A stretch of 64,000 nt of DNA from Candidatus Dormiibacterota bacterium (GCA_036564925.1 DATCOB010000082.1:149-64148), one strand, 5' to 3'; positions 5,004 through 56,766 are shown, counted from the first letter of the stretch. Program-made: numbers and translations. Notes: a model not told the origin generated them from the letters alone.

Positions 5004-5166
5004 TTAGCTCAGAAACTTTTACGCGCGTGGCGCCGTCCAGCGGCCCATGGCGCGGCTCGGGCAAAATTCCAATGCCCTCGCCCTGCGCGACAGGCCGCAG
5101 GCGGCGCCCGCGCTATCCGGCGCCATCAGGCGCCGACCGGGCCTGCGGCCCGGCTCATCTGCTTAG
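5004..5166 (+). repeat. Structured intergenic repeat, copy A (MITE/REP-like or ncRNA)
   Basis: Shares a 40-nt identical core with copies B and C. Termini are TTAGCTCAGA...TCTGCTTAG. Confidence 0.85.
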
Positions 5167-5186
5167 TCGATAATGACGCTGTCGCT

Positions 5187-5963
5187 ATGAATGTGATTGT
5201 CTGCGTCAAGCAGATCCCGGATCCGAATGCGCCGGGAAAATTGGACCCGCAAACCAGGCGGTTGGTGCGCGAGGGGGTGGACCTGGTGCTCGATCCTGGT
5301 GACGAGCATGGCGTTGAGGCCGCCCTTCAGGTGGTCGAAAAGGCAGGGGGCGAGGTCACCGTGGTGTCGATGGGGCCGCCTAAGGCGCTCGACGCCATTC
5401 GCAAGGCCCTCTCGATGGGGGGTACCCGAGGCATCCTCATCACGGACCCCCTGCTCGAGAATTCAGACGCGCTGAGCACCGCCCGGGCGATCGCCGCGGC
5501 TGTCAAAGGGCAGCCGTTCGACCTCATCATCTGCGGGACGGAGAGCACGGACGGCTATTCCGGCGCCATGCCCGCCCAGCTGGCCGAACTCCTCGGACTG
5601 CCGCTGCTCAGCTTCGCAAAGAAGCTCGAGGTCGGCGACGGGAAGGCGGTGATCGACCGGCAGACCGACGACGGGTACGACGTCGTCGAGGCGCCGTTGC
5701 CTGCCGTCGTCACCGTGACCGGCGGCATCAATGAGGCCCGCTATCCCTCGTTGCGCGGCATCATGCAAGCCAAGCACAAAGAGGTCAAGCAGGTCGGCGT
5801 CGACGACCTGGGCCTCACGGGTCAGGTGGGGGCGGGGTCCCTCACCCAGGAGGTCGTCCAGGCCGTGCCGGCGGAGGCGCGGAAGGCCGGCGAGGTGGTG
5901 GAAGACAAGGGTGAAGGGGCGAAGCGGGTCGCCGACTTCCTGGCCCAGCTGAAGGTCATCTGA
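5187..5963 (+). CDS. etfB: Electron transfer flavoprotein beta subunit
   Basis: MNVIVCVKQIPD, DLIICG, and RYPSLRGIMQAK motifs. Confidence 0.95.
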   Translation: MNVIVCVKQIPDPNAPGKLDPQTRRLVREGVDLVLDPGDEHGVEAALQVVEKAGGEVTVVSMGPPKALDAIRKALSMGGTRGILITDPLLENSDALSTARAIAAAVKGQPFDLIICGTESTDGYSGAMPAQLAELLGLPLLSFAKKLEVGDGKAVIDRQTDDGYDVVEAPLPAVVTVTGGINEARYPSLRGIMQAKHKEVKQVGVDDLGLTGQVGAGSLTQEVVQAVPAEARKAGEVVEDKGEGAKRVADFLAQLKVI

Positions 5964-6928
5964 TGGCGATCTGGGTGTTCGCCGAGACCGTTGACGGCGC
6001 GCCGCGGCCGGTGGTCCTCGAGCTACTGACCAGGGCGCGCAGCCTCGGGGAGGTCTCCGCCGTCGCCCTGGGACCGGGGGCTGGTCAGGCCACCGAGGCC
6101 CTGGGCGCTTACGGCGCCGGGAAGGTGTTTGTCCATGAGGACCCGGCGTTCCGGGACACCCTGGCCACTCCGGCGGTCGATCTCCTCGCGTCCCTGATCG
6201 AGCGACATCAGCCGGAGGCGGTGCTGTTCGGCATGACCTACGATGGGCGCGACATTGCCTCCCGCTTGAGCGCGAGACTGGGGACCGCGTTGATCGCCAA
6301 CGCGACAGACCTCGATCGCAAAGACGGCACGCTCGCCGTCATCTCGCCGCTGTTCGGCGGAACGACATTGGTGACCACGATCTCAAAATCGAAGCCGCCG
6401 GCGCTGATTCTGGTGAGGCCAAAAGCCTTCACAGCCGAAACGGGCGGGGGCGTCACGCCGGAGGTGGAGCGCCTGACCGATGCGATCGACGCCGCAAAGC
6501 CGGCGGCACGGGTGTTGAAGCGTGAGAAAGAACAGGCCGCCGGGCCGCGGCTCGAGGATGCCGCCGTCATCGTGAGTGGCGGCCGGGGCCTGGGTGGGCC
6601 CGAGAATTTTGGCATGCTCGACGAGTTGGCCGCCGAACTCGGGGCGGCGGTCGGAGCGAGCCGCGCCGTCGTCGATGCGGGCTGGAAGCCCTATTCCTTC
6701 CAGATCGGGCAAACCGGCAAGACGGTCAAGCCCACCGTGTACATCGCGTTGGGCATTTCGGGCGCCATGCAGCACACGGTTGGCATGAAGGGCGCCAAGA
6801 CGATCATCGCCATCAACAAGGACGCGGAGGCGCCGATCTTCAAGCTGGCCGATCTCGGCATCGTGGGCGACGTCCATAAGATCGTGCCCCAGCTGATCAA
6901 GGAGGTCAGATCCCGCAAGGGGAAATGA
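5963..6928 (+). CDS. etfA: Electron transfer flavoprotein alpha subunit
   Basis: [37 protein letters not shown] and INKD motifs. Confidence 0.95.
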
Positions 6929-7779
6929 CCTCGAGCGAGCTCAGTCTCCTGGCGGTTCAGCCACACCCCGACGACGAGTCGATCACCATGGGCGGCACCC
7001 TTGCCCGCTACAGCGCCGAGGGTATCCGCACCACGCTCGTGACGGCGACTCGAGGCGAGGTCGGCGAGATCCTCGACAAGGATCTGGACCCGGTGGAGGC
7101 GGCGCCGCGCCTGGCCAGCATCCGCGAGGCCGAGCTTCGCACGGCCTGCGAGATCATGGGCGTCGGCGAGCTCGTCTTCCTCGACTACGAGGATTCAGGC
7201 ATGGCCGGCCTGCCAAGGAACCACGAACCGCGGACGTTCTGGCAGGCGGACGAAGAGGAGGCGATCGCCAGACTCATCGCGGTGATCCGGCGCGTCCGCC
7301 CGCAGGTCATCGCCACCCAGAACGAGGTCGGTGGCTACGGCCACCCCGACCACATCATGACGCACCGTGTTGCCATCGGCGCGTTTTACAACGCGGACAA
7401 CGTCGAGCGGTTCCCCGCCGGCGAGCCGTTCAAGCCCAGCAAGCTCTACTACACGGCCTTTCCCCGGTCGCTGATGAAGGAAATGGGCGAGGCGATGAAA
7501 CGCGCTGGGATGGAGAATCGCTTCTCAACTGACGATGAGCCGCCGGCGTTTACGGTGTCGGACGACCGGATTTCGGCCTGGCTCGACGTCTCACCCTACC
7601 TTGCTGTCAAGATCCGGGCGATGCAGGCGCACAAGACCCAGATCCCGCCGGACAGCTGGTTCATGAAACTACGGGACGCGCTTGGCGACCGAGCATGGAG
7701 GCTGGAAGCGTACGAACGGGTCCGCTCCACCGTCGAGCCGCCCCTGCCGGAGGACGACCTCTTCGCCGGGCTTCGATGA
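6925..7779 (+). CDS. PIG-L family deacetylase (MshB/Mca-like)
   Basis: [28 protein letters not shown] and AHKTQ motifs. Confidence 0.9.
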
Positions 7780-8546
7780 GATCGGCGACCGGGCCGGCGG
7801 TGGCGGCCGCGGCTCGATTGCTGGACGGCGCGCGAGCGGCGATCGCGTTCACCGGGGCAGGCGTTTCGGTGGAGAGCGGCATCCCGCACTTCCGCGGCGA
7901 AGGAGGGCTGTGGACGCAGTTCGACCCCTACAAGGTCGCCCACATCGACACCTTCCGCAAGGATCCCGCCCAGTATTGGACGTACAGCCTCAACCATCGC
8001 CGGGCGGGCGCCGAGCCGAATCCCGCGCACCACGCGCTGGCCGAACTCGAACGGTGCGGCCGGCTGCAGGCGGTCATTACCCAGAACACCGACGGGCTGC
8101 ACCAGCAGGCCGGCAGCACCGAGGTGGTCGAGCTCCACGGCTCGTCCAAGGCAGTGGTCTGCCTGACGTGCCAGGCCCGCTACCCCCGGGACGAAGTCGA
8201 CCGGATGAACGCCGTGCAATGTCCGCCCCGCTGCCGATCGTGCGGGGGCTGCTTTCTGAAACCGACCGTGGTGCTCTTCGGCGAGCCGCTCCCGGTTGAG
8301 GCGCTGCGGCGGGCGCAGGCCCTCGCCCGGGAGGCGGACGCCGTGCTCGTGGTCGGAAGCTCGTTGCAGGTCTACCCGGCCGCCGGGATCCCTCGCCTGG
8401 CGAAGGAGCATGGCGCCGAGCTCTGCATCGTCAACGCGGAACCAACTCCCTACGACGACCGAGCGGCGATCGTGATCCACGCCAGAGCCGGGGAAGTGCT
8501 GCCCCGGATTGTCGGCGCGATGGCGCCGCTCAGCCCACCTCGTTGA
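7776..8546 (+). CDS. cobB: Sir2-family NAD-dependent deacylase
   Basis: [39 protein letters not shown], two CxxC pairs and [10 protein letters not shown]. Confidence 0.93.
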
Positions 8547-8850
8547 CGGGGAAGGTCTGACCACAGCTGGGGCACACGACCAGCGCCTGTGTCGCCGGCG
8601 CGCCGAAGAGGGTTTCGCAGCTGGGACAGGCGTATTCCCGGGGCGGATTCTCGAGGAGCGTCCGGTCCTGCTCCATCGCGTCCGGCACTTGCCCCAGGTC
8701 CAGGGCCGGGCTTCCGCACTCGGTACAGCGGTACAACGGCGCGTCGACCACCCGGTGCTCCAGGTACCGTCCGAGGGTGTCCACGAACACGGACGCATTC
8801 CAGAGTTCGAAGCGGTTATTCGTGCACCGGTTGGGGCACGCGAGAAACAT
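8530..8850 (-). CDS. Multi-Zn-ribbon hypothetical protein
   Basis: CPNRC, CTEC, CPSC and CPSC; start overlaps the aminotransferase stop. Confidence 0.75.
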   Translation of the reverse strand: MFLACPNRCTNNRFELWNASVFVDTLGRYLEHRVVDAPLYRCTECGSPALDLGQVPDAMEQDRTLLENPPREYACPSCETLFGAPATQALVVCPSCGQTFPVNEVG

Positions 8851-10025
8851 CAGGCGTGGGCCCCCTGGAGCCGCTTGAGGCGGTCCGCGGCTCGCCGAAG
8901 CGTATCCATCTTCTTGGGAAATGAGAATCGGATCTGGTGGCGCCCCCGCTCGGGTTCCAGGTAGAAGCTACTTCCCGGCACCGTCGCTAAGCCGATCTCG
9001 CGGACCATCCGATGGGCCAGGGTCACGTCGTCCTCGCCGAACCGGCCGATGTCGGTCATCACGTAGTAGGCCCCGTCCGGCGGATAGCTCCGAAAGCCGG
9101 CCTCATCCAGGATCTCCAGCATGAAGTCGCGCCGCTCCCGGTAAGCGTGAAGCAGGTCGACGTAGTAGCTGTCCGGAAAAGCCAGGGCCGTCGCCGCCGC
9201 GATCTGGAGGGGATGGGGCGCGCCCACGGTCACGAAGTCGTGCACCTTCCGGATGGCCTGCGTCATGGATTGCGGGGCGATGGTATAGGCGAGGCGCCAG
9301 CCTGTCACGCTGTACGTTTTCGAGAGGCCGCTGATGGTGACGGTCCGTTCACGCATCCCGTCGATGGTCGCCAGGCTGACGTGCTCGCCGCGGTAGACCA
9401 GGTGCTCGTAGATCTCGTCCGTGACGGCGAGGACGTCGAATTCCTGGCAGAGCGAGGCGATGTACTCCAGCTCATTTCGGCTGTAGACCTTGCCGGTCGG
9501 GTTATGGGGCGTGTTGATCACGATCGCCCGTGTTCGCGCATTGAAGGTCCGGCGAAGCTGCTCCGGGTCGAAATGCCAGTCAGGCGGAACAAGCGGGACG
9601 GCGACCGGCGTCGCGCCGGAGAGGATACAGTCCGGACCGTAGTTCTCGTAGAAAGGCTCGAAGATGATCACTTCGTCGCCAGGGTCGACGAGCGCAAGGA
9701 CGGTGGACAGCATGGCTTCGGTGACCCCGCAGCAGACGGTGATCTCGGTTTCGGTGTCGACCTCGATGCCCCTGAAATGCTGGGTCTTTTTTGCGATGGC
9801 GTCGCGCATGACCTTGGCACCCCAGGTGGTGGCGTACTGGTTGAAGTCCGCTCGGATCGCGTCGACTGCTGCTTCTTTCAAGTCGGCGGGCGCCGAAAAG
9901 TCGGGAAAGCCCTGCGCCAGGTTCAGGCAATCGGCGCCGTGCTGGGTCACGCACATGCGGGTCATCTCGCGGATCACCGACTCGCTGAACAACATCGACT
10001 TCCTCGACGCCACGCTTTTCGTCAC
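8850..10025 (-). CDS. Class I/II PLP aminotransferase (YbdL/DapC-like)
   Basis: LNLAQGFPDF, NTPHNPTGKV, DEIY and SKTYSVTGWRL motifs. Confidence 0.93.
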   Translation of the reverse strand: MTKSVASRKSMLFSESVIREMTRMCVTQHGADCLNLAQGFPDFSAPADLKEAAVDAIRADFNQYATTWGAKVMRDAIAKKTQHFRGIEVDTETEITVCCGVTEAMLSTVLALVDPGDEVIIFEPFYENYGPDCILSGATPVAVPLVPPDWHFDPEQLRRTFNARTRAIVINTPHNPTGKVYSRNELEYIASLCQEFDVLAVTDEIYEHLVYRGEHVSLATIDGMRERTVTISGLSKTYSVTGWRLAYTIAPQSMTQAIRKVHDFVTVGAPHPLQIAAATALAFPDSYYVDLLHAYRERRDFMLEILDEAGFRSYPPDGAYYVMTDIGRFGEDDVTLAHRMVREIGLATVPGSSFYLEPERGRHQIRFSFPKKMDTLRRAADRLKRLQGAHA

Positions 10026-10043
10026 ATAACTAGAATGCCAGAA

Positions 10044-11213: not shown

Positions 11214-11229
11214 AAAGCGTTGGCTACAG

Positions 11230-11258
11230 TTGCTCTCCGTGAGGCAACCGTGTATAAA
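11230..11258 (+). promoter_or_regulatory. sigma70-type promoter TTGCTC-N17-TATAAA
   Basis: 17-nt spacing, 52 nt upstream of the SBP start; an inverted repeat GTTGC...GCAAC overlaps the -35. Confidence 0.55.
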
Positions 11259-11310
11259 GAGCGAACCGAATTTAGGTCTGTAACGAAGGGAGAGGAGGTC
11301 GACAAGGAAG

Positions 11311-12507: not shown

Positions 12508-12521
12508 GGAGTAGAAAGCGA

Positions 12522-12544: not shown

Positions 12545-12555
12545 CCGATGCTGCA

Positions 12556-16256: not shown

Positions 16257-16257
16257 G

Positions 16258-28277: not shown

Positions 28278-29075
28278 TTGGCTGCCGTCGAAAGACCAGA
28301 GCAGGGTGATGGCACGCCGTACCGCCTTGGTGGGATGGGGTACCAGGACGAGTCCGGTCGGCGCCTCAACTACGGCAGCTATCTTCACATCCCCGAGTTG
28401 CTGTCCCTGCAGGCGGGACTGACGGACGCCCATGACGAACTCCTGTTCATCATCGCCCACCAGGCCTACGAGCTGTGGTTCAAGGAGCTCATCCACGAGT
28501 TGGAGGCGGTGCGCTCCGCCATCGATCGGGATGACCTCGTCCGGGCGCGCCATTACCTGCAGCGGGTCAAGGTCGTCGAGGCCCTCCTCGTGGAGCAGGT
28601 CGGCGTGCTGGAAACGATGGCTCCCCACGACTTCCTCGCCTTTCGATCGGAGCTCGCCCCGGCGAGTGGGTTCCAGTCGACCCAGTTTCGTGAGATCGAG
28701 TTCCTATCCGGCCTCAAAGACGCCGGCTACCTCAAGACGGTGCAGAGCCTGCCGGACGATCACGCCCGGCTCCAGCGGCGGCAGGGGGAGCCGTCGCTGC
28801 GGGATGCGTATCACGCCCTGCTGGCGCGGCGGGGCCTGGCCGTCATCGACATCTACCGCGACGCGCCCACCCACGCCGACCTCTACGGCCTGTCGGAGGG
28901 GCTCCTGGATCATGACGAGGGATTCAGCCTCTGGCGTTCGCGGCATGTGCACATGGTCGAGCGGCAGATCGGTGACAAACCGGGGACCGGTGGGTCAACG
29001 GGCGTACGCTACCTGCAGTCGACGCTCGGCAAGCGATTCTTTCCGGAACTCTGGCAAGTCAGATCCCAGCTCTGA
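28278..29075 (+). CDS. kynA: Tryptophan 2,3-dioxygenase
   Basis: YGSYL, HDELLFIIAHQAYELWFK, ASGFQSTQFR, VERQIG and GTGGSTG motifs. Confidence 0.95.
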   Translation: MAAVERPEQGDGTPYRLGGMGYQDESGRRLNYGSYLHIPELLSLQAGLTDAHDELLFIIAHQAYELWFKELIHELEAVRSAIDRDDLVRARHYLQRVKVVEALLVEQVGVLETMAPHDFLAFRSELAPASGFQSTQFREIEFLSGLKDAGYLKTVQSLPDDHARLQRRQGEPSLRDAYHALLARRGLAVIDIYRDAPTHADLYGLSEGLLDHDEGFSLWRSRHVHMVERQIGDKPGTGGSTGVRYLQSTLGKRFFPELWQVRSQL

Positions 29076-29522
29076 TCAACGACTGTTCGCGAACAGGCGG
29101 CTGAAGTAGGTGATGGCGAGGGGAACCAGCAGAGCCAGCAGCGAAGTCAGGACCGCGAGCCCGTCGGGCAGGTGGCTCGGATTGCTCATCCCGATATAGG
29201 TGAAGATGGCGGCCCCGATGGCGCTGCCGATCACGACGATCGTCGCCACGATGGTGGCCCAGTCTCGGTGCTGCATGTAAAGCGACAACGACTTGCGACC
29301 GGCAAGACGAAGTAACCATGAGGCGGTCAGGCCGTTGAGGACCAGCGAGCTGACGAGGGCGCAGGCGGCGATTGCAATCCGGAATTGAGACAGGTTGCGC
29401 ATTACGAACGCGGAAGCGTTGACGACGAGGATGCCGATCGGGGTGATGATTCCGATCGCCAGGAGCAGCCAGCGGGCGCTGAAGTAGCCGCGCAAGAGCC
29501 GGTCGCCCTGGCGGTTCGTCAT
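29076..29522 (-). CDS. Hypothetical 4-TM membrane protein
   Basis: Hydrophobic segments; start overlaps the kynU stop. Confidence 0.7.
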   Translation of the reverse strand: MTNRQGDRLLRGYFSARWLLLAIGIITPIGILVVNASAFVMRNLSQFRIAIAACALVSSLVLNGLTASWLLRLAGRKSLSLYMQHRDWATIVATIVVIGSAIGAAIFTYIGMSNPSHLPDGLAVLTSLLALLVPLAITYFSRLFANSR

Positions 29523-30763
29523 CAGGTGACCGTCAGGCGGGTGGCGTACTCGGGCCGTGCCCAGGCCCGTGACATGAGCACGTCGCCAAGGGTGCGGACC
29601 GCATCGTAGACGTCGACATACCGGGTGTAGAGTGGCGCGAGCCCGAACCTCATGACATCCGGCGTGCGGAAATCGCCGATGACGCCGCGGTCGATCAGGG
29701 CACGCATCACCCGGTAGCCCTCTGCATGGCGCAGCGAGACCTGGGAGCCGCGCCGCGTCGCCTCCCTCGGTGAGACAACCTCGACCTCCGATCCCCCGAA
29801 GGTCTCGTCGACGAGTCGAATGAAGAGGTCGCCCAGCGCCATGGACTTGCGTCGCATCTCAGCGTGGTCGACCCGGAGCAAGAGATCGATGGCGACCTCG
29901 AGAGCCGCCATGCTGAGGATGGGCGGCGAGCCGGCCAGCTGGCGCATGATGCCGTCGGCCGGCCGGTAGGTGCGCTCGAACGCAAAAGGCGCCGCGTGGC
30001 CCATCCAGCCGCTGAGCGGTGACTCCATGGCGCCCTGCAGCGTCCTGGCGACAAAGAGGTAGGCGGGAGCGCCCGGCCCCCCATTGAGGTACTTGTAGCC
30101 GCAGCCGATCGCCAGGTCCACGGCGTTCTTGTTTAGATCGACCGGCACCGCGCCGGCGCTGTGCGAGAGATCCCAGAGCGTGAGCACGCCATGACGTCGG
30201 GCTGCCTGCGTGAGTCGTTCCATGTCATGGATCTCGCCGGTCACGTAGTCGACGTGGGTCAGCATGAGAACGGCGACGCTGCCGTCCAGCGCTTGGTCGA
30301 GCTGGGATCGCTTCACCACGCGCAGGGCGTGATTCCCATTGAGCAGCTGGATCAGGCCCTGGGCAACGTACAGGTCGGTCGGAAAGTTCTCCTCTTCCGT
30401 GAGAACGAAGTGACGCCCAGGTTGGATCCGCAGGGCGCCCGCCAGCAGCTTGAAGAGGTTGACCGACGTGCTGTCGGCCGCAACGACCTCGCCGGCTTCC
30501 GCGCCGATCAGGGTGGCGATCTTGTCGCCGATCCGCCGAGGCGCGTCGATCCAGTGGGCCGAATTCCAGCTGCGGATGAGCCCCTTCCCCCACTCCTCGG
30601 CGATGACCTCGGTGAGCCGCGGCAGGGTGGCCCGGGGCAGCGCGCCGAGCGAATTCCCGTCGAGGTAGATCACGCCCTCCGGGATGGCAAACTCATCCCG
30701 CGCGGCCTTGAGCGGATCCTGCTGGTCGAAGCCGAGGCAGGTCTCGCGGTCCACGGACGGCAT
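29522..30763 (-). CDS. kynU: Kynureninase
   Basis: YLDGNSLG, WDLSHSAG, GCGYKYLNGGPG, RGSQVS and RFGLAPLY motifs. Alternative GTG start at 30754. Confidence 0.95.
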   Translation of the reverse strand: MPSVDRETCLGFDQQDPLKAARDEFAIPEGVIYLDGNSLGALPRATLPRLTEVIAEEWGKGLIRSWNSAHWIDAPRRIGDKIATLIGAEAGEVVAADSTSVNLFKLLAGALRIQPGRHFVLTEEENFPTDLYVAQGLIQLLNGNHALRVVKRSQLDQALDGSVAVLMLTHVDYVTGEIHDMERLTQAARRHGVLTLWDLSHSAGAVPVDLNKNAVDLAIGCGYKYLNGGPGAPAYLFVARTLQGAMESPLSGWMGHAAPFAFERTYRPADGIMRQLAGSPPILSMAALEVAIDLLLRVDHAEMRRKSMALGDLFIRLVDETFGGSEVEVVSPREATRRGSQVSLRHAEGYRVMRALIDRGVIGDFRTPDVMRFGLAPLYTRYVDVYDAVRTLGDVLMSRAWARPEYATRLTVT

Positions 30764-30777
30764 TATGGGCGCTGCCC

Positions 30778-32013
30778 TCAGAAGTGACTCGGGCACCACG
30801 GCGCCCGGTCGGTGGCGAACATCGCGTCGGCCCGCGCGACCGCGCCCGGGCGATTCTCCTCGATTCTTCCGGCCTCGAGCAGCGTGCGGAACCTGTTGCC
30901 GCCGAGGTAGAGCGCGCCGAGGTCCGCGGCGTCGAGCGCCAGGTCGGGGGCGCCTTTTATGCTTCGGCATTCGGCGCCCGCCGGCCCTCCCACCAGCTCG
31001 AACTGCCGATCGTTCCAGGGGCAGAAGGCATCGCGGACGCGCAGTGCCAGACGATCCTCGACCGAATAGCGACGTCCCTTAAGGGCCGCGGCGACATCCA
31101 CCAGCCGCAACCAGATGCCATCCTCGACCCTAGTCTTCGGCTGCCGAGAGTCCGCCAACAGGAAGCGCAGGGGCTCTTCCACCGGACGCATCTCGGCGGA
31201 CACCCGTGCGATCAGGTCCACATCCAGGACGTGGCGCCAGAGGGCCGCGTAAGCCTCGGCCGTTGCCGCCACCAGCATTTCGAGGCGCAGCTCCCCGTTT
31301 GGGCCGGCCGCATCCCAACCCATCTTGATCCGGTAAATCGCAAAGCCGGATGGCTTCCCGTCCGTCTCGTAGAGCACGCGATATTGTGGGCTGGCGCCAG
31401 CCCGGCTCACCTCGAGGTCGGCCATCTGGGTGCGGATCCAGCGCTCGTCCAGCGCCAACATGCCGGGCTGGTTGCCTCGAGCATCCTCCCAGACGCGAGT
31501 GAAGGCACTGATGGCGGTTGCGAGATCCGCCATCGAGAGCCGTCCCCTGCCGTAGACCGTTGTGGCAAAGGCCGCGTGCGAACGCGCGATCTCCAGCGCA
31601 GCCTGGTAGGTCGCCAGGCCATAGCCGAAACGTCCGTAGATCGGCGCCTCGGAGGCGTAGAGGGCCGCCAGCGGCTCGCCGCGTTCGTGCATGTCGTCCA
31701 GCTGGCGCCGCATCATCGCCGTCAGCAATCCACGGCGGCGATGCGTGCTCAGGACGCTGACCCGTGTCACGCCGCCGCACCGGAGTGCGCCTCCGGGAAC
31801 GGTCATTTCGTAGGAAAAGATGCCAGCCGTGGCCACGATTTCGGGGCCGTCGAAAACCGCCAGGCTCCGGTCGAACTCCGTGATCTCACGGCTGGCCGCC
31901 AGCTCCTCGTCCGTCGGCGGCGGCGAACCAAAGGCGCGCCGAATGTGCGTCGAGTACGCACGCTGTTCTTCCGGCTTGAGTTGCCGGAGCTCGAGGCCGG
32001 GGTGCGCGCTTAG
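30778..32013 (-). CDS. Eis-like GNAT acetyltransferase with SCP2 domain (start codon unclear)
   Basis: GVTRVSV, HRRRGLL, LYASE, IYGRFGYG and WLRLVDV motifs. No in-frame ATG/GTG at the expected N-terminus. Confidence 0.85.
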   Translation of the reverse strand, partial: LSAHPGLELRQLKPEEQRAYSTHIRRAFGSPPPTDEELAASREITEFDRSLAVFDGPEIVATAGIFSYEMTVPGGALRCGGVTRVSVLSTHRRRGLLTAMMRRQLDDMHERGEPLAALYASEAPIYGRFGYGLATYQAALEIARSHAAFATTVYGRGRLSMADLATAISAFTRVWEDARGNQPGMLALDERWIRTQMADLEVSRAGASPQYRVLYETDGKPSGFAIYRIKMGWDAAGPNGELRLEMLVAATAEAYAALWRHVLDVDLIARVSAEMRPVEEPLRFLLADSRQPKTRVEDGIWLRLVDVAAALKGRRYSVEDRLALRVRDAFCPWNDRQFELVGGPAGAECRSIKGAPDLALDAADLGALYLGGNRFRTLLEAGRIEENRPGAVARADAMFATDRAPWCPSHF

Positions 32014-32795
32014 CGTTGAACCAGGGCCAGCGCTCGGCAGGGGCTTCCTGATCCTTTCACGAGCTTCAGCGGAGCCACCACAAGGACGGCGCCGGTCGGC
32101 GGCAACTTGGCCAGGTTGGCGAGCTGGGTGAGGCCGTACTTGTTCGCGCCGAGCAGAAACTGGTGGCAGGGAAATGGCGGATTGAAGGAATGGGCAGTGC
32201 CGGCGTCGGTGCCGACCGTCTCGACACCCACGCCGACGACGGGGCTCTCTTTCGCGAGCCAGGTCGCCAGTTCGATGTCGATGCCGGGGGTATGAGGGCC
32301 GGTCTCGTTCGCATTGAGGAAGGCCTTCTGGTCCTGTGCGCGCGCATCCCACCCCGTTCGATAGAGGAGCCAGCATCCCTTCGGGATCGGGCCGTGCTCG
32401 CGTTCGAAGGCCCGGATATCGTCCCGGGTCAACAGGTAGTCGGGATTGGCCTGCGCCTCTTTCGACTTGTCGATCACCACGGCTGGCCCGATCAACCGCG
32501 CGACTGGGACCTGCGACACGTCGTCCTTGTCTTTTCCGGTGACCCAGTGGATGGGGGCGTCGAAATGGGTGCCGGCGTGCTCGCCACCCTCGAACCAGTT
32601 CCAGTACCACGCCGGGCCCTTCTCGTCGTACCGGCTGATCTCGTGCGTCTTCCACGCCGGCGTGTTGGCGAATGGTGGTGGCAGCTGGATCATCGGAGTC
32701 CGGTCCGACAGCGGCTGGGTGAGGTCGATGACCTCGATGGAACCCGACATGAGTCCGGTGACGAAGGATGCGAGCGTGTCGACCGTCGTACTCAT
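32010..32795 (-). CDS. kynB: Cyclase-family metal hydrolase (kynurenine formamidase-like)
   Basis: EHAGTHFDAP, GVETVGTD and GSGSPCRA motifs; in the same operon as kynU. Confidence 0.82.
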   Translation of the reverse strand: MSTTVDTLASFVTGLMSGSIEVIDLTQPLSDRTPMIQLPPPFANTPAWKTHEISRYDEKGPAWYWNWFEGGEHAGTHFDAPIHWVTGKDKDDVSQVPVARLIGPAVVIDKSKEAQANPDYLLTRDDIRAFEREHGPIPKGCWLLYRTGWDARAQDQKAFLNANETGPHTPGIDIELATWLAKESPVVGVGVETVGTDAGTAHSFNPPFPCHQFLLGANKYGLTQLANLAKLPPTGAVLVVAPLKLVKGSGSPCRALALVQR

Positions 32796-32797
32796 CT

Positions 32798-33472
32798 TCA
32801 CTCCTCCCTTGATTTCAGCGCCGGGATGTTCGTTGGCTGGACTTTGGTCACACGGGTCGGCCTCCGCAAGTCCTCCGTGCGGCGCGGTGGCTGCTGCAAG
32901 GCTCGCGGGAACTCGAAGCGATTCTCGAGCATGTGCACATCCATCAAAAAGCTCTTCGGCATCTCCGCCTCCACCTTTGCCACCACGCAACTCAGATCGT
33001 CGCCGTTGATGGCGTCGAGCGCCGCCTCCTCGAACGCATCCAGCTCGCGGACCAGTTGCGACCGGGGAAAGCCCGCCGCCTTGGCGATGCCGGCGAGATC
33101 CGTTCCCGTCGAGGTCGCCGTGGTAAACCAGCGGTAACCGCCCGGAGCGCCGCCTCCGACGGAGAGCAGCGTCTCGTTATCGAAGATGAGATGCACCAGG
33201 TTGCGTGGCCTGGACCGAGCCATGGTGGTGAGTCCGCCGAGGTTCATCAGGACCGAGCCGTCCCCGTCGACCACCACCACCTTGCGATCGGGCTGGGCGA
33301 GCGCAAGACCGAGCCCGATCGATGACGCCAGCCCCATGGCGTGTTCCAGGTAGAAGAAGTTTGCCCGATGGCCCAGCGAGTAGAGCTCGGCGGCCACCGC
33401 GCCCATGATGGTGACCACCGCGCAATCTTCCAGTGCCGGGTAGATCGCCTTGAGGCAATCGATCCGCTTCAC
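32798..33472 (-). CDS. TPP-dependent decarboxylase beta subunit (ComE/Ppd-like)
   Basis: MGLASSIGLG, DGDGSVLMN and FDN motifs; GTGA overlap with the alpha subunit. Confidence 0.88.
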   Translation of the reverse strand: MKRIDCLKAIYPALEDCAVVTIMGAVAAELYSLGHRANFFYLEHAMGLASSIGLGLALAQPDRKVVVVDGDGSVLMNLGGLTTMARSRPRNLVHLIFDNETLLSVGGGAPGGYRWFTTATSTGTDLAGIAKAAGFPRSQLVRELDAFEEAALDAINGDDLSCVVAKVEAEMPKSFLMDVHMLENRFEFPRALQQPPRRTEDLRRPTRVTKVQPTNIPALKSREE

Positions 33473-33987
33473 GTCGGCTCCTCCCACATGAGGTCCCGGT
33501 TGAGGAGCAACGCGACCGGCGAGAGCGAGCTCTGGGCGAGCGTCATCGCCTGGCTGAGCTTGGGTTCGATGTCCTGCGGCCGCGCCAGGTCGTCGTGCGC
33601 GATGTGCAGCGCATCCAACACCGGCCGGGTGTGCTTGCCGCCCTCCGTTTGCCAGGGATCTTTCTCTCCGAAGGTGCCGCGATCGGTGATCAGCATCAGC
33701 AGGGGGATCTTGTAGAGGAGCGAGATGCCGACGATCCCGTTGATCGCCTGCAGGAACCCATGATTCTGCAGCAGCATGGCCGACTTGACGCCGGCGAAGT
33801 GCGCGCCGGCCGAGATGCCGACGCCTTCCTCTTCCTTGGCGAGCCGCACGAGCGTCATATCCGGGTCTTCGTCCGCCATCCGGATCAGGTGCACCAGCCA
33901 CGTCTCCGGGAGCGCGCTCACCAGCTTGACGCCCGTCTTCTTCAAGGCGTCATAAACGATCTGCGAATTGGCGATCGACACCGGCAC
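33469..33987 (-). CDS. TPP-dependent decarboxylase alpha subunit (ComD-like)
   Basis: LPETW, KEEEGVGISAG, LQNHG and RG-x-FGE motifs. Confidence 0.88.
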   Translation of the reverse strand: MPVSIANSQIVYDALKKTGVKLVSALPETWLVHLIRMADEDPDMTLVRLAKEEEGVGISAGAHFAGVKSAMLLQNHGFLQAINGIVGISLLYKIPLLMLITDRGTFGEKDPWQTEGGKHTRPVLDALHIAHDDLARPQDIEPKLSQAMTLAQSSLSPVALLLNRDLMWEEPT

Positions 33988-33996
33988 GTGCCTTAT

Positions 33997-34157
33997 CTAA
34001 GCAGAATCAGCGAGGCCACAGGCCGAGCCGCGCTTTCGCGCGGAAAGCGCCGGCGCCGCATGCCGCCTGTACGCGCAGGGCGAGGGCATTGGAATTTTGC
34101 CCGAGCCGCGCATGGGCGGCTGGACGGCGCACCGGCGCGTGTAAGTCTCTGTGCTAA
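33997..34157 (-). repeat. Structured intergenic repeat, copy B
   Basis: Reverse complement contains the 40-nt core. Termini are TTAGCACAGA...TCTGCTTAG. Confidence 0.85.
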
Positions 34158-34177
34158 CCCGGCTTAGAATGGCCTGA

Positions 34178-39984: not shown

Positions 39985-40380
39985 TCAGTCGCGGATCTGG
40001 TTCCAGAACTCGATCTCCCACCGCCACTCCTTCCGGTCGTCGGCGTGCCACCAACGCTTGAGGATGCCGGCCTCGCCACCGGGTAAGAGGACGAGCCGCC
40101 CGATGTCGTGCTGGGCCGGCCAGCCATCCTCGAGGCTGATCTGTGTTCCACGTCGCACCAGGTAGCTCATGGGACCGGCCTGATGGCGCTCGAGGTTCTC
40201 GCCGTTCGCGAGCAGGCGGCCATGGGCGTCGCGCACCGTCACCTGCAGGGTCTTGGGCGCGGCATGGACGAGAATGCGATCCCTCGCGTCCTGAGCCCGC
40301 ACCCGGCAGCGCGCAAACGACAGCCCGGTCGCGCCCGGCCCGGGCAGCCACAGGTCCCAGAACTCCAGTGGATCGGCCAT
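39985..40380 (-). CDS. Trp-rich hypothetical protein
   Basis: 131-aa ORF filling the gap; no family recognised. Confidence 0.7.
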   Translation of the reverse strand: MADPLEFWDLWLPGPGATGLSFARCRVRAQDARDRILVHAAPKTLQVTVRDAHGRLLANGENLERHQAGPMSYLVRRGTQISLEDGWPAQHDIGRLVLLPGGEAGILKRWWHADDRKEWRWEIEFWNQIRD

Positions 40381-40399: not shown

Positions 40400-40557
40400 C
40401 AAGCGCAGACACTTCTCGCGCCGGTGCGCCGTCCAGCGGCGCATGCGCGGCTCGGGCAAAATTCCAATGCCCTCGCCCTGCGCGACACGCCGCATACGGC
40501 GCCGGCGCTATCCGCGCGAAAGCGCGGCTCGCCCTGCGGGCTCGCTCTTCTGCTCAG
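40400..40557 (+). repeat. Structured intergenic repeat, copy C
   Basis: Contains the 40-nt core. Termini are CAAGCGCAGA...TCTGCTCAG. Confidence 0.85.
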
Positions 40558-40647: not shown

Positions 40648-40953
40648 TTAGGTGCGGACCGTCTTGATCAGTCGGTCCTGCGCCTCGAAGATGATGTCCT
40701 GGATGTCGAGGGCGCTTGGCCCCGATTGATCGATGCGGTAGGCAAGTTGCGGATCGACGGCCTCCACGATCTGGCGGAGTCTCGCTTGCATTTCGATGGG
40801 GACTTCCATCATGTCGCTTTCCAGCAGTCGCTCCACCTGCTCGAGGGCCCGGTAGAGCGAATACCGAAGTGTCCGGCGTGCCGACTCCTCGCGGCGCAAC
40901 TGGTTGAACCACTGGTCCTGCTGGTTGATCATCCTGAGCGTGTTCCTGAGCAT
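40648..40953 (-). CDS. 101-aa helical hypothetical protein
   Basis: AAGGGGGAG RBS before ATG 40953. Confidence 0.75.
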   Translation of the reverse strand: MLRNTLRMINQQDQWFNQLRREESARRTLRYSLYRALEQVERLLESDMMEVPIEMQARLRQIVEAVDPQLAYRIDQSGPSALDIQDIIFEAQDRLIKTVRT

Positions 40954-48427: not shown

Positions 48428-48428
48428 C

Positions 48429-49427: not shown

Positions 49428-49432
49428 GCAAA

Positions 49433-49466
49433 CGGCTCGCCCGGCGGGCTTGCTGAATCGCCTGAG
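49433..49466 (+). repeat. 3-prime fragment (E) of the structured repeat
   Basis: cggctcgcccggcgggcttgctgaatcgcctgag matches the last 34 nt of copy B at about 25/34 positions by manual count. Confidence 0.55.
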
Positions 49467-49508
49467 GTGAGAATCCGGCCGCGGTGGACACCGGCGGCGC
49501 CGGGTCAC

Positions 49509-50717: not shown

Positions 50718-50744
50718 GCTGGGCTCCAGCTAAACTCCATCTCA

Positions 50745-52160: not shown

Positions 52161-53494
52161 ACCCGGCCGCGGACCGCCTGCTCGATCGCGCGAAAAAAAA
52201 CGGCGCGGAGGAGGCCGAGGTCTACATCTCCCGGGGCAGCGAGTTGACCGTCAACGTGTACAAGCAGGAGATCGAATCCCTCGTCTCGGCGGAGAGTCGG
52301 GGGATCGGGCTCCGCACGCTGCGCGAGCACCGGGTGGGCTTTTCCTACACCTCCGACACCGACGACGCCGCTCTCGATGCGCTGGTCGATGAGGCGCTCG
52401 AGAACGGCCGCTACAACCATTCCGACGACGCCAATGTGCTACCGGAAACGGAGCCCGTTCTCCCCCTTGCCGGCCTGTACTCTCCGGGACTCGCGTCAGT
52501 CGATCCGCAGCGCAAGATCGACTTTGCCCTCGAGATGGAGCGTCGCGCCATCTCGATCGACCCACGGGTGCGCCGGGTCAGCGAGGCCGTTTACAGCGAC
52601 GGAGCCGGAAGTGTCGAGATTTATAACACGCGCGGCCTGGCCGTGGACTTCCACCGCAGCGTCGCCTATGGTGTCCTGCAAACGATCGCCGAGGCGGAGG
52701 GCGAGATGCAGTCCGGTTTCGCCTTTACCCACGGCCGGGACATTGATGCGCTCGATCTCGACGCGGTGGTTACCGAGGCGGTGGCGAACGCCGCCGGGCT
52801 ACTGGGGGCCAAGCGCGTCCCGACGGCCAGGGTCCCGGTTGTGCTGCATCCGCACGCCGCCGCCATGATCCTCGGCATCCTCTCGAGCTCGTTTTCGGCG
52901 GACGCCGTCCTCAAGCAGCGGTCCTTGCTGGCGGGGAAGGTGGGAGAGCAGGTTGCCGCCACCGTCCTGACCATCACGGATGACGCCAGGCTCCCCGATG
53001 GCCTCGCCAGCCGGCCGTTCGACGGTGAGGGGGTGCCGGCGCGCCGCAACGAACTGATCAAGGACGGGGTGTTGCAAGGCTACCTCCACAACACCTACAC
53101 CGCCAGGCGAAGCGAGAGCCGGTCGACCGGCAACGCGGTACGCTCGTATAAGAGCGTGCCCGAAGTCGGCGTCACCAACCTGGTCCTCACGCCGGGCACC
53201 ATCAGCCGTACGGAGTTGCTCAACCGGGTGGGTAACGGACTGCACGTATCGCAGCTCCACGGATTGAACACCGTCAACCCGATATCCGGCGAGTTCTCCC
53301 TGGGATTGACCGGGCACTGGATCGAGAACGGCCAGCTGACGCAGCCGGTCCGGGAGCTCACGGTGGCCGGCAATGTGATCGACCTGTTGAAGCGCGTGGT
53401 CGCCATCGCCGACGACCTTCGCTTCATGTTCGCCGGTGGGTTTGTGGGAAGTCCGACCGTGCTGATCGAGGAGTTGCCCGTCGGCGGGACGTAG
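52157..53494 (+). CDS. pmbA: PmbA/TldE
   Basis: FDGEG and SGEFS motifs, no HExxxH; paired with tldD. Confidence 0.93.
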   Translation: MNPAADRLLDRAKKNGAEEAEVYISRGSELTVNVYKQEIESLVSAESRGIGLRTLREHRVGFSYTSDTDDAALDALVDEALENGRYNHSDDANVLPETEPVLPLAGLYSPGLASVDPQRKIDFALEMERRAISIDPRVRRVSEAVYSDGAGSVEIYNTRGLAVDFHRSVAYGVLQTIAEAEGEMQSGFAFTHGRDIDALDLDAVVTEAVANAAGLLGAKRVPTARVPVVLHPHAAAMILGILSSSFSADAVLKQRSLLAGKVGEQVAATVLTITDDARLPDGLASRPFDGEGVPARRNELIKDGVLQGYLHNTYTARRSESRSTGNAVRSYKSVPEVGVTNLVLTPGTISRTELLNRVGNGLHVSQLHGLNTVNPISGEFSLGLTGHWIENGQLTQPVRELTVAGNVIDLLKRVVAIADDLRFMFAGGFVGSPTVLIEELPVGGT

Positions 53495-53528
53495 TCATTC
53501 GCCCCTGCCCATTCAACGTCCGGCCGTC

Positions 53529-54690
53529 GTGCTGGGGTTGCTGTGGCTCACCGGCATCAACCTGCGCACGGTGATCCTCGGCGTGCCGCCCACGCTGCCC
53601 ACCCTGCATCGGGTGCTGGGCCTTTCCTACAGCGCCGGCGGCCTGCTGACATCCCTGCCCGTTCTGGTCATGGCGATCGGGGCCATTCCTGGCGCCTTCT
53701 TGATCAGCCGCGTCGGTCCCCGGCAGGCCGTGACGTACGGCCTGGCCCTGCTGACCACCGGCGCGGCACTGCGAGCCGCCATCCCCGGCACCCTCGTCCT
53801 CTTCGTCTTCACCGTGGTCTTTTCGCTGGGGATCGCGGTCAGTCAGCCGGCGCTGCCCAGCCTGGCGCAGGCGTGGTTCCCCCGGCGCGTCGGCCGCGTC
53901 ATTGGGATCTACTCGAACGGCCTGTTGGTCGGGGAGGTGATCGCCGCGACCATCACGCTTCCCCTCCTCCTGGCCCGCCTGGGGTGGCAGGCGGCCCTGG
54001 CGGTGTGGGCGATCCCCGCCGCCAGGCTCGGTCGGCCTCTGGCTGGCCTTCACGCCACGCACCGGAGCCCGGCTCGTGGTGCCGGCCGCCTGGGTCCCCG
54101 ACTGGCGTAACACGTGGACCCTACGGCTGGGCCTCCTGATGGGTGGCGCGAGCCTGGTGTATTTCGGCATGAACACCTGGATCCCGGACACGCTGGATGC
54201 CCGCCACGCGCGGAACCTCATTCCCCTCACCCTCGGGGTGCTGAATTTCGCGCAGTTGCCGGTCAGCGCCGTCCTCGCCGTTGCCGGCGACACGATGGTG
54301 GGGCGTCGCTGGCCGTACTGGCTGGCCGGCTTCGCGTGCCTGATCGGGGTCGTCGGCTACGCGCTCGCGCCGGCAGCCAGCGCGCCCCTGTGGGCCGGCA
54401 TGGCCGGGGCCGGCAGCAGCCTGGCGTTCATCCTCAACCTCGGCCTTCCGGCGCTCCTCCCCCCGTCGGAGGTCGCTCGGACCAGCGGCTTCATGTTCAC
54501 GATCGGCTACGGATCCGCCTTTTTTGGCCCGGCGCTCGGGGGAGTCGCCTGGGATCTGACCGGCCACTTCCTGTTCGCGCTGGTGCCGATGGGGCTGGCC
54601 GCCCTCGCCATGCTTGCCCTGGGGACGACGCTGCCGCGGCCTGCGGTCAGCCCGTCAGCGCGGCCGGCGTCGTTTGGACGAGGGTGGTGA
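53529..54690 (+). pseudogene. CynX/CeaA-like MFS transporter split by a frameshift near 54021-54031
   Basis: The N-half (INLR, LTSLP) and C-half (YFGMNTW, TIGY) are in different frames and join into a single MFS protein. Confidence 0.75.
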
Positions 54691-55357
54691 CCGCCTGCAA
54701 TCCGGCGAGGACGTCCTCCCGCCTGATCGCGTCGCGGCCGTCCCGCAACGCGCGCGCCATCGCGATCACCTGGCCGCTGAAGGTGACATAGCTGGTCAAC
54801 ATGCTTCCCCGCACGCTATGCAGCCTTCCCTGCGTCAGCTCGGCCTCCACGGCCCCCACCAGGCGTCCGGCGCGGCGAAGCAGGGGATACGCGTCATCTC
54901 GAGTCAGCTTGACGCGGCGCAGTCGATGGAAGTAGGCGACCTCCGGCTCGGGTGGCCGCCGGATCTCGGCGAATCGTTCGGCCCCTTCGAGGAGTCGCAA
55001 CATCGTGTCGTAAACCGCGTCGAGGCGGGCCGCCCCCGTCCGCTCCTGGGTGTAGCCGTAATGCCAGAGGATGACGGCGTCGGCAAACGAGAAGAAAACG
55101 TTCCGGTACAGCGTGTCGCCGCTCAGCGTCGAGGCCAGGGCATTGCGCAGCCCCGCCCTCGCGTTCTTCATGGCCGGACGCTCGAACAGGTCATCGACCA
55201 GGCCGGCCCACTGCGGGCGAGCGGCCATGGAGGCGGTGGCCATCACGGTGAAGGCCGGCACGGACGCCAGGTGCTCGATGGCCGCTGCGAGCGGGGTCGC
55301 CTCGCGGCCGCCCAGGTCGAGTAGCGCTGCGCGCGCTTCGGCCACACCGGGATCCAC
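54647..55357 (-). CDS. Helical hypothetical protein
   Basis: Long ORF downstream of the PHP gene; the start is uncertain. Confidence 0.65.
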   Translation of the reverse strand: MDPGVAEARAALLDLGGREATPLAAAIEHLASVPAFTVMATASMAARPQWAGLVDDLFERPAMKNARAGLRNALASTLSGDTLYRNVFFSFADAVILWHYGYTQERTGAARLDAVYDTMLRLLEGAERFAEIRRPPEPEVAYFHRLRRVKLTRDDAYPLLRRAGRLVGAVEAELTQGRLHSVRGSMLTSYVTFSGQVIAMARALRDGRDAIRREDVLAGLQAVTTLVQTTPAALTG

Positions 55358-55368
55358 CAGCGTCGGGC

Positions 55369-56202
55369 TCAGACCGCTTGCTCCATCGCCGGCCATTGGA
55401 TCCGGGAGCCCAACTTGTCCAGGTAGCGGACGTCGATGATCTTCTTGGGCGCCTCGTAGTCGTCGCCGTTGAAGCCGTGGTAGTCGGTGCCGACCGTCAT
55501 CAAGAGCCCGTGCTGGTTGGCGAGTTCCTCATAGATGGGGATCTGCTCCGGTTTGTGGCGTCGCGTATAGACTTCGAGGCCGTCGACCAGCGGCAGCAGT
55601 TCCTTCATCAGGTCCTGGTCCGGAACGGATCCAGGATGGGCGTGGACCGCCAGGCCGCCCGCGGCGTGGATGGTGTCGATGGCCTCCTGCGGCGACGGAA
55701 TCGGGGCATAGAACTCGGTGGGCATGAAGTCGACCGCCTTCCGGACGCTGTCCCAGGCATCCTTCTCGGTCATCAGCCCATGCTGGAGGATGACCTTCAG
55801 GATGGCGCCCGGCATCACCATGGGCTTGTGCTGGTAGCTTTCCAGGCCGAGTTCCCCACCGATGTCCTGCTCGCGGAGCACGGCGATCCAGGCTTCCGCC
55901 TGCCGGCGGAGGACCCCCTGGGTACGCCGGATCATCGCCAGCAGCCGGGGGTTGTCCATGTCAACCCCATGGCCGAGGATGTGCCGCATCTGGTTGGGCG
56001 GGTAGGTGGTCACCTCCAGGGCCGGAAGGTAGCCAAGGCCGCGCCGGTGCGCCGTCGCCCAGGCGCGCGCCACCCCGTAGAACGAGTCGTGGTCGGTGAG
56101 CGCCATGACCCGGACGCCGTGATCCGCGGCGAGGTGGGCGACCTCGTCCGGGTCACGCCATCCGTCACTGACAGTGGAATGCATGTGGAGATCGGCCAGC
56201 AT
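55369..56202 (-). CDS. PHP-domain phosphoesterase (TrpH/YciV-like)
   Basis: DLHMHSTVSDG, LTDHD, AHP and GTDYHG motifs. Confidence 0.92.
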   Translation of the reverse strand: MLADLHMHSTVSDGWRDPDEVAHLAADHGVRVMALTDHDSFYGVARAWATAHRRGLGYLPALEVTTYPPNQMRHILGHGVDMDNPRLLAMIRRTQGVLRRQAEAWIAVLREQDIGGELGLESYQHKPMVMPGAILKVILQHGLMTEKDAWDSVRKAVDFMPTEFYAPIPSPQEAIDTIHAAGGLAVHAHPGSVPDQDLMKELLPLVDGLEVYTRRHKPEQIPIYEELANQHGLLMTVGTDYHGFNGDDYEAPKKIIDVRYLDKLGSRIQWPAMEQAV

Positions 56203-56339
56203 GAGCCCTAGTCTACCGGCCCTTACCGAACTCAGGTCGCGACTGTATTTCCCCCGGTGACGGATTTCCCGACGGCCCCCGTTGGGTATCAATAAGAGCA
56301 GGCAGCAACCGGTTTTCGCTAAAAAGTTAGGTGGGACAC

Positions 56340-56579
56340 ATGCTTGGGGAACTCGAACTGACGCGGTTGATCGAAGACAACGAATATCCGGCTCGCGTCG
56401 TCCAGACGGGCATCCTCTGGGTCGAGCTCGAGCTCATCGATGTCAACACGAGCGCCATCACCCGGGAGCGGATGTCCAAGTCCGCCTTCGCCGATCTCAT
56501 CCTCGACTGGCGGGAGCGCCGCACGCGCAACACCCGGCATCTAGGGCCCGCGCTCCGCAAGATCGGTATTGCTGCTTAG
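56340..56579 (+). CDS. ~79-aa hypothetical protein
   Basis: AGGTGGGA RBS-like sequence before ATG 56340; compact ORF in an otherwise empty gap. Confidence 0.65.
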   Translation: MLGELELTRLIEDNEYPARVVQTGILWVELELIDVNTSAITRERMSKSAFADLILDWRERRTRNTRHLGPALRKIGIAA

Positions 56580-56585
56580 GCCGCT

Positions 56586-56766
56586 CAAGCGCAGAGACTC
56601 TACACGGGCTGATACTCGCTCGTTTCGGCCCTCGAGCCGGCGCCTCGCGCAAAATTCCAGTGCGCTCGGCCTGCCTAACTCGGGCCGACTCGCTCGCCAG
56701 CCCTACGCTAAAGATCGTCTGCGGCGCGTGTCGGTCCGCGCCAAAACGCGGCCCGACCTTTTTTAG
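56586..56766 (+). repeat. Diverged structured repeat, copy D, ending in a terminator-like hairpin
   Basis: 5-prime CAAGCGCAGAGAC as in copies B/C; core GCGCA-AAATTCCAG-TGCGC; 3-prime stem 56730-56757 plus T6. Confidence 0.65.

Follow-up and report, generated by a model that had tools for sequence, protein, structure and literature searches.

The DNA analysed here is a stretch of 64,000 nt (hereafter the window) from an uncultured soil Dormibacterota (Candidatus Dormiibacterota bacterium), in which four copies (A to D) of a structured intergenic element are dispersed among protein-coding genes, three of them about 160 bp long and the fourth longer. Pfam scans of the ~57 predicted window proteins returned only housekeeping families, and the genes include those for ETF, a branched-chain amino-acid ABC transporter, an acyl-CoA dehydrogenase, a kynurenine-pathway cluster, cystathionine beta-synthase, cystathionine gamma-lyase, LytB, LigD and TldD/PmbA. 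Neither a transposase, a recombinase, a reverse transcriptase nor an HUH enzyme was found among these proteins, in agreement with the first-pass annotation of this DNA, which had seen no mobiliser in view.

Copies A, B and C share a 40-mer, GCGCGGCTCGGGCAAAATTCCAATGCCCTCGCCCTGCGCG, which occurs exactly at 5050-5089 (+), 34072-34111 (−) and 40445-40484 (+), and which had no match in 100 dinucleotide shuffles of the window, even with up to three mismatches. Copy A (5004-5166, + strand, 163 nt including both flanking TTAGs) lies between a small arginine-rich open reading frame (ORF) and etfB, sense to both. Copy B (33997-34157, − strand, 161 nt including both TTAGs) fills the divergent spacer between the cystathionine beta-synthase gene (rightward from 34178) and a TPP_enzyme_N gene (leftward from 33987), whereas copy C (40400-40557, + strand, 158 nt) is antisense between two minus-strand genes, i.e. 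an ~100-aa gene ending at 40648 and a DUF7712 gene starting at 40380. The 5' ends (TTAGCTCAGA, TTAGCACAGA and CAAGCGCAGA) and 3' ends (TCTGCTTAG and TCTGCTCAG) quoted for these copies were confirmed on reading. Folding of each window copy gives a common architecture of a CAGA/UCUG end pairing, an ~90-nt imperfect hairpin (P2) with conserved internal loops and an invariant apical loop (AAAAUUCCANU), a 5-6-bp hairpin closed on GAAA (cGAAAg; P3) and a short GC hairpin (P4). In copy A, P2 runs from 5023 to 5113, P3 from 5118 to 5135 (GGCGCC-ATCA-GGCGCC, the loop being AUCA as RNA) and P4 from 5137 to 5153 (CCGGGCC-TGC-GGCCCGG). In copy B these hairpins lie at 34138-34047, 34043-34028 (with the cGAAAg loop) and 34024-34014, and in copy C at 40418-40508, 40512-40527 and 40531-40541; P3 reads CCGCGC-GAAA-GCGCGG in both, while P4 reads GGCC-TGT-GGCC in B and GCCC-TGC-GGGC in C. 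The exact positions, the shuffles and the reading thus confirm the three ~160-bp copies of the first-pass annotation, with their identical 40-mer, ends and hairpins.

A fourth copy, which had been implied through an end coordinate of 56766, is real but diverged. Copy D (56576-56766, + strand, 191 nt including both TTAGs) was exposed by a repeat search via the region ~56638-56707 and is placed after a gene, between convergent genes. It represents a separate subtype: its 5' end, TCAAGCGCAGAG, is common to copy C, its hairpin is longer (56606-56703, with CUCGCUCG on both strands) and P4 is missing. The apical stem-loop, the most conserved module of the family, is located at 5056-5080 (+) in A (CUCGGGCA-AAAUUCCAA-UGCCCUCG), 34081-34105 (−) in B, 40451-40475 (+) in C and 56644-56668 (+) in D (CUCGCGCA-AAAUUCCAG-UGCGCUCG), where it takes the form CTCG-C-GCAAAATTCCAGTGC-G-CTCG and a G-C pair of copies A to C is replaced by a compensatory C-G. 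The 3' module of D is a P3-like hairpin followed by six T residues (T6; 56730-56764), which by eye has the look of an intrinsic terminator. In run X12, this module (GTCGGTCCGCGCCAAAACGCGGCCCGAC and then T6, 56730-56766) reaches a word depth of 380-580x versus 12-45x for its flanks, and it is therefore a terminator-like repeat that is far more abundant than the whole element.

The fold was assessed with a covariance model (R1) built on the structure of the element from copies other than D. Known copies score 130-199 bits (A 130, B 167 and C 147 bits), while D scores 20 bits (E 0.0017); no fifth copy was found in the window with this model. In a model-guided alignment of 18 copies from the window and from soil Dormibacterota contigs (41 pairs, 735 cells), 97.6% of the cells are standard pairs and 16 of the 41 pairs carry double-sided (compensatory) changes, values that were reached by none of 500 column shuffles, in an alignment that is itself fitted to the model and whose copies are related rather than independent. 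Sliding the 3' partners by 1-3 columns leaves a pairing of only 28-48%. The compensatory changes are found mostly in the middle helix of P2, in P3 and in P4; the loop and the five uppermost pairs do not vary, helix 4 is invariant in all 18 copies, and the cGAAAg tetraloop is present in 17. Modelling in this way shows that every copy can fold into a fixed set of predicted hairpins, as single-stranded DNA or as RNA, and that compensatory substitutions preserve this fold, which bears out the earlier observation that the hairpins persist while the sequence varies. The helix closing the element (P1) was considered and rejected as a robust feature; it is weak, since in most copies the 5' flank pairs with the 3' flank at a duplex energy no better than that of shuffles. 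No Rfam 15 family reached its gathering threshold anywhere in the window, and permissive scans of B, D and the L-type copies (from the related loci described below) gave only chance miRNA-like matches (E>2), so the element is indeed not a described Rfam family.

Comparison of filled with empty orthologous sites, a check that had been proposed for this element, reveals differences at A, B and C. The spacer of site B is 190 bp in the window versus 41-56 bp in syntenic relatives (L019, L027-30, L033/34), and that of site C (between the ~100-aa gene and the DUF7712 gene) is 267 bp versus 57-90 bp; at both sites the flanking proteins of the relatives compared, homologues named Dormibacteraeota, are 84-91% identical and gene order is kept over 20 kb. 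Site A is empty in relatives with an 85% identical EtfB (L037-39) and filled in those with a 91-97% identical EtfB (L035, L036 and L040), whose contigs end inside the element. An allele without copy C is also present in run X12, where a low-depth contig joins 40369 to 40577 via 30 other bases. Insertion has often taken place immediately behind a stop codon, or at a distance of a few to ~100 bases upstream of a start codon.

Because syntenic relatives are empty at A, B and C, because TTAG flanks copies A, B and D, and because removal of copy B rebuilds a palindrome (see below), the element is inserted, non-autonomous, non-coding DNA. Judged by these comparisons, it is shown to be DNA inserted into intergenic DNA at or next to TTAG (Py-T-A-Pu), in either orientation. 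With moderate confidence, it seems that the copies belong to a family of non-autonomous, non-coding insertion elements of ~150-190 bp, broadly comparable to miniature inverted-repeat transposable elements (MITEs) and specific to soil Dormibacterota. The first-pass annotation, which had favoured a MITE-like or selfish structured element, was right in outline, as the element is inserted, dispersed and non-coding. Copies are 158-191 bp long, have no conserved ORF, are multiple and dispersed, and occupy sites that are filled in some genomes and empty in others; conserved terminal inverted repeats, which are also characteristic of MITEs, are lacking.

The target site can be followed most closely at copy B. 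A TTAG is found on both sides of copies A, B and D (5004-5007 and 5163-5166 in A, and 34157-34154 and 34000-33997 in B, both as described earlier; 56576-79 and 56763-66 in D). Just inside the 5' TTAG, A and B have C[AT]CAGA but D has GCCGCTCAAGCGCAGA, and this difference between subtypes makes it unlikely that TTAG is part of a conserved terminus. In relatives where site B is empty, the spacer contains a conserved palindrome, ATTCTAG-N16/17-CTAGAAT or ATTCTA-TGCG-TAGAAT (L027 9951-9990; L033 ~9951-9989; L019 ~9953-9968). In the window, the target context of B (33988-34177, − strand) reads ATTCTAAGCCGGG-TTAG-(element)-TTAG-ATAAGG, with the palindrome half-sites ATTCTAA (34170-34164) and TTAGATA (34000-33994) split by the insertion, and when the element is taken out along with one TTAG, what remains is ATTCTAA-GCCGGG-TTAGATA, a palindrome like those of the empty relatives. 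This reconstruction supports insertion at TTAG, which would have occurred either with a 4-bp duplication or, if TTAG is the element's own end, beside a single TTAG; TTAG as the target site, as first suggested, thus shows target-like behaviour in the empty-site comparison. The palindrome that is split by copy B, located between the divergent cystathionine beta-synthase and TPP-enzyme genes, has the look of an operator for divergent promoters.

Recorded targets of IS5 are CTAG, CTAA, TTAG and CAAG, i.e. Py-T-A-Pu, and IS5 is inserted both ways round, with a preference for easily melted DNA close to promoters (PMC5493358). The element resembles the IS5 family in the TTAG flanks of A, B and D (with CTAG/CAAG-like variants), in its promoter-proximal intergenic sites and in its use of either orientation; it differs in that neither an IS5-like transposase gene nor an IS5-like 16-bp terminal repeat was seen here, so that the link is one of target type alone. 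The element may be moved in trans by a transposase encoded elsewhere in the genome, for which an IS5-like DDE enzyme would, by target type, be the first candidate.

The second mode of insertion suggested by site B, i.e. 3' of a single TTAG without duplication, would fit an element mobilised as a single strand by an HUH/Y1 enzyme, of the REPIN or IS200/IS605-derived 'PATE' type. The transposase would then recognise the sub-terminal hairpins in single-stranded DNA and cleave the right end at the 3' TTAG, a motif belonging to the element itself. If the parent were IS605-like, the fold could also be the scaffold of a TnpB guide RNA. The reconstruction of the empty site fits this equally well, it is the hairpins rather than the termini that are conserved (via compensatory change), and the geometry is suitable, with a left TTAG, 14-17 nt and a hairpin, and on the right a hairpin, 13 nt and TTAG. 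L-type copies start at TTAC or TTGC, and TTAC is the target of IS608. However, no Y1 transposase or TnpB was found in the window or in any fetched locus, nor was there an Rfam match of the IS605/HEARO type. The two ends of IS608-type elements have hairpins that resemble each other, but P2 on the left and P4 on the right do not, and the present element is far longer and more complex than repetitive extragenic palindromic (REP) units, which measure 20-40 nt (REPINs being two inverted REPs). The orientation of the window copies (+,−,+,+) shows no strand bias, on four copies that are too few to judge by. Overall, single-strand mobilisation appears quite improbable.

Beyond the window, an exact scan for the apical motif in one genome per species matched only two metagenome-assembled genomes (MAGs), both Candidatus Dormiibacterota (L001 and L002), and a metagenome scan with a looser motif returned 16 soil contigs that represent a handful of loci. 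These comprise a divergent pair of GT4 glycosyltransferase genes (L003, L004, L009, L010, L011 and L013 in one orientation; L012, L015 and L017 in the other), the region upstream of smc (L007, L008, L014 and L016), the lon/valS gap (L005, a D-like subtype with 38.6 bits) and the further loci L006, L018 and the MAG loci L001 and L002. The R1 model detects four copies in the window and a single one at each related locus. L006 (1-5263, Ga0137417_1337019) was considered as a composite transposon with two inverted copies and rejected, the whole contig being palindromic as a result of assembly fold-back. Its arms are ~95% complementary with a centre near 2630 and join two strain variants, so that its two copies represent one locus.

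The sampled words of the window are for 80-90% present in soil-metagenome DNA runs. In run X1 (the likely source run), word depth is ~260 over the element versus 11 in the flanks, i.e. ~25 times higher as a sum over the whole community, while in run X12 it is 75-180 versus 12; contigs from the DNA runs break inside the element. These values indicate a repeat that is present at tens of copy-equivalents in the whole community. In ~305 kb of fetched syntenic Dormibacterota DNA (partly redundant), the only copies found were three at site A, all cut off by the contig end (L035, L036 and L040). The first-pass extrapolation to hundreds of copies per genome can therefore not be upheld, given the nearly empty ~305 kb of relatives, the single copy per locus at a few conserved loci and a depth that is community-wide. 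Searches of plasmid, phage and viral collections gave nothing beyond a 32-nt chance match. Further copies annotated as spurious ORFs were also sought and dismissed, as a search with translations of the element gave no word-indexed candidates and a single low-complexity match when run exhaustively.

Where the same site is occupied in several lineages, the element is well conserved. At the glycosyltransferase locus, orthologous copies in the same orientation are 94-100% identical versus 78-90% for 370 bp of coding flank on each side, and copies in the opposite orientation are 92-98% identical versus 79-95% for their flanks; at the smc locus, the element (86-94% identical) is about as conserved as the gene. 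Both orientations occur at one glycosyltransferase site, with L003/L009/L011/L013 and L012/L015/L017 sharing the same two genes at different junctions, and the same is seen at site A, where X10 and X14 contigs have 4993 linked to the reverse complement of 5163. Together with the poorly conserved termini (see below), conservation and dual orientation argue for a constraint on the fold, and the dual orientation at one site argues for repeated hits on a hot spot or for in-place inversion of a quasi-palindrome. In L015 (1220-1620), an inverted full element is followed by a forward remnant of another copy (P4 plus CTGCTAAC), apparently left by turnover or nested insertion at this site.

Both orientations at the glycosyltransferase locus and at site A are also what an inverton would produce, i.e. 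an invertible promoter or regulatory cassette flipped by a trans-acting site-specific recombinase on short flanking inverted repeats. Copies are found immediately upstream of genes, including surface-polysaccharide-type glycosyltransferase genes, and inverted repeats of 11-13 bp flank the L-type copies. Simple flips are contradicted by the junctions, which differ between orientations, and by the extra forward remnant in L015; moreover, the two orientations occur in lineages that are 8-20% apart and not within one population, no promoter-like site was found by scan, no recombinase is located nearby, and copies also lie at the 3' ends of genes (D, L001). An inverton is consequently very improbable.

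The conservation at single sites bears on the possibility that the element is a structured RNA that serves its host, either as a multicopy small RNA gene or as an mRNA module, with an apical loop and internal loops that bind protein or RNA, and that it has spread by rare duplication or recombination and not through a transposase of its own. Invariant loops and junctions with covarying stems are the pattern of a structured RNA, to which the cGAAAg tetraloop in 17 of 18 copies can be added. The glycosyltransferase and smc copies persist across lineages whose flanks are 10-22% apart and are more conserved than those flanks, the hairpin plus T6 at the end of copy D resembles an intrinsic terminator, and, among the six copies that follow a gene or separate co-directional genes, five have the same sense as transcription. 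Set against this are three independent insertion-type presence/absence differences within one 64-kb window, the TTAG flanks of three copies, the failure of a consensus scan around B and D to find a promoter- or terminator-like site, an antisense strand that folds at least as well, and the ~305 kb of related Dormibacterota DNA that is element-free apart from the three cut-off copies at site A. A host-functional RNA is thus possible, albeit unlikely on balance. A further reading, which we consider a little more doubtful still, is that the element is primarily a functional structured RNA of an undescribed class, with three hairpins, an invariant 11-nt apical loop and a GNRA tetraloop, maintained by purifying selection in Dormibacterota. 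Such an RNA might be the partner (guide, scaffold or regulator) of some protein or mobile-element system, with the insertion-like spread being secondary.

A riboswitch, or another dedicated 5'-leader regulator, was also considered. The copies at A, B, smc, valS and the glycosyltransferase genes are indeed sense and lie 4-103 nt upstream of a start codon. Nevertheless, the genes downstream of the copies are unrelated and without a common pathway (etfB, a TPP decarboxylase-like gene, GT4 glycosyltransferase genes, smc and valS), five of the 11 distinct loci (C, D, L001, L002 and L018) are outside a leader position, and orthologous genes in relatives do without the element. Orientation relative to the neighbours is mixed, as the first-pass annotation had remarked, with A and B sense and upstream of etfB and the TPP-enzyme gene, C antisense and D between convergent genes. 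Its argument against a riboswitch holds, and we attach next to no probability to this explanation.

Returning to the reading as MITE-like insertion elements, this would include an effect on the host. Most copies are inside transcription units or in 5' or 3' untranslated regions, and the fold would therefore most likely act once transcribed, as a processing/stability or protein-binding module that may alter the expression of the adjacent gene. A role as an expression module would explain the retention of resident copies and their slower evolution than the flanks. On the predicted fold, an RNA-level function of the element is possible. As regards the strand, G-U cells outnumber A-C cells by 21 to 6 (13 of the 21 coming from one pair), and this excess, together with the cGAAAg loop, favours the annotated strand.

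A number of observations weigh against MITE-like insertion elements with a folded, possibly transcribed, body. Copy C lacks a clean duplication (TTTAC...CTAG), and older L-type copies are bounded by NNAG...TAAC rather than by TTAG...TTAG. Terminal inverted repeats amount to only ~4-5 bp (CAGA/TCTG), and the termini are the least conserved part of the element, with 5' ends that differ between subtypes, whereas the centre is the most conserved; poorly conserved ends are the opposite of what a DDE transposase substrate should have. Pairing of the ends is overall not significant (z −3.9 to +1.2). Neither in the window nor in the fetched loci was there a partner insertion sequence (IS) whose ends match. 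The high conservation of the copies could be inflated by repeat collapse in metagenome assembly, or by recombination. The opposite strand folds 3.8 kcal/mol better on average, and does so in 14 of the 18 copies, which leaves the strand ambiguous. Finally, no genuine RNA run was found to contain the locus: the runs labelled RNA-Seq (X5-X9, X11 and X15) were rejected as expression evidence, as their 30-60-kb contigs with even coverage of genes and spacers identify them as metagenomic DNA.

Small, hairpin-forming, non-coding mobile intergenic repeats are a known class, which includes ERIC, Correia, RUP, Nezha and bcr1 (PMC3184786). The nearest analogue is bcr1, a repeat of ~155 bp with 5-bp flanking direct repeats that is transcribed, variable in distribution and subject to compensatory changes (Klevan et al. 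2007, summarised in PMC3184786). The present element is likewise ~155-165 bp long, non-coding, patchy among relatives and flanked by short direct repeats, with a multi-helix fold that shows compensatory changes. It differs from bcr1 in sequence and phylum, in its 4-bp TTAG (versus 5-bp repeats), in being known from DNA alone (whereas bcr1 has been shown to be transcribed) and in that its resident copies are more conserved than the flanking genes. MITEs of the ERIC/Correia/RUP type are also small, intergenic, hairpin-forming, non-autonomous and found in either orientation, and they are often co-transcribed with their neighbours and can affect mRNA processing or stability (PMC3184786, PMC2229807). 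Unlike the element described here, which has ~4-5-bp repeats, a conserved centre and a three-hairpin arrangement, these MITEs have clear terminal inverted repeats and TA duplications and fold as one long stem. REP/REPIN and IS200/IS605-derived elements are similar in their GC-rich hairpins with compensatory change, their intergenic position and the tetranucleotide beside a hairpin; they differ in that the unit here is ~160 nt long with three different hairpins, the end hairpins are dissimilar, and no RAYT/Y1 transposase is present in the window. The suggestion that the element is a novel system is therefore too strong, as bcr1, ERIC and Correia are known examples of the same kind of structured, MITE-like intergenic repeat (PMC3184786). 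No relevant literature on Dormibacter repeats was found, nor any described mobile elements or non-coding RNAs for Dormibacterota. The element is a previously undescribed family of a known repeat class, set in an uncultured phylum.

Several other identities were considered for the element and rejected. Coding for a type I toxin or small protein was discarded because the six-frame translations contain no conserved start and no hydrophobic ORF. A sigma-70 promoter or intrinsic terminator inside the element was not found by consensus scan around B or D (D having its hairpin plus T6 by eye). An attC site does not fit the polarity of the end motifs, and sequence inspection revealed no cassette array or integrase. 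A bridge RNA, omega-RNA or retron RNA was dismissed as none of the 40 loci has an adjacent recombinase, TnpB/IscB or reverse transcriptase.

A few neighbouring genes deserve mention. The small arginine-rich ORF next to copy A (~4840-4998, + strand, 53-79 aa, MILFAWRLYR...) lies directly upstream of etfB, is conserved in relatives (L037 9704-9943) and has no Pfam match. The TPP-enzyme gene pair preceded by copy B heads a conserved cluster (28278-33987; L019/L027 10001-15700) with a kynurenine formamidase-like cyclase, a GNAT/SCP2 acetyltransferase, kynureninase, tryptophan 2,3-dioxygenase and an AMP-binding enzyme, which by its gene content looks like a tryptophan-degradation operon of Dormibacterota. 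At 53529-54690 (+), two overlapping ORFs of 193 and 204 aa match the N- and C-terminal halves of MFS_1 and are probably one transporter gene with a frameshift or assembly error.

Dormibacterota are an uncultured, widespread soil phylum for which there are no genetic tools. With its covariance model, the repeat family provides a marker of genome change between strains of this phylum, explains the breaks in metagenome contigs and aids the curation of MAGs. It also provides candidate cis-acting modules at the starts of genes, including etfBA, the kynurenine-pathway operon, smc, valS and the glycosyltransferase genes. If the unusual conservation of resident copies is real, the family would be an example of the domestication of a mobile repeat, which now acts as a structured signal in RNA or DNA.

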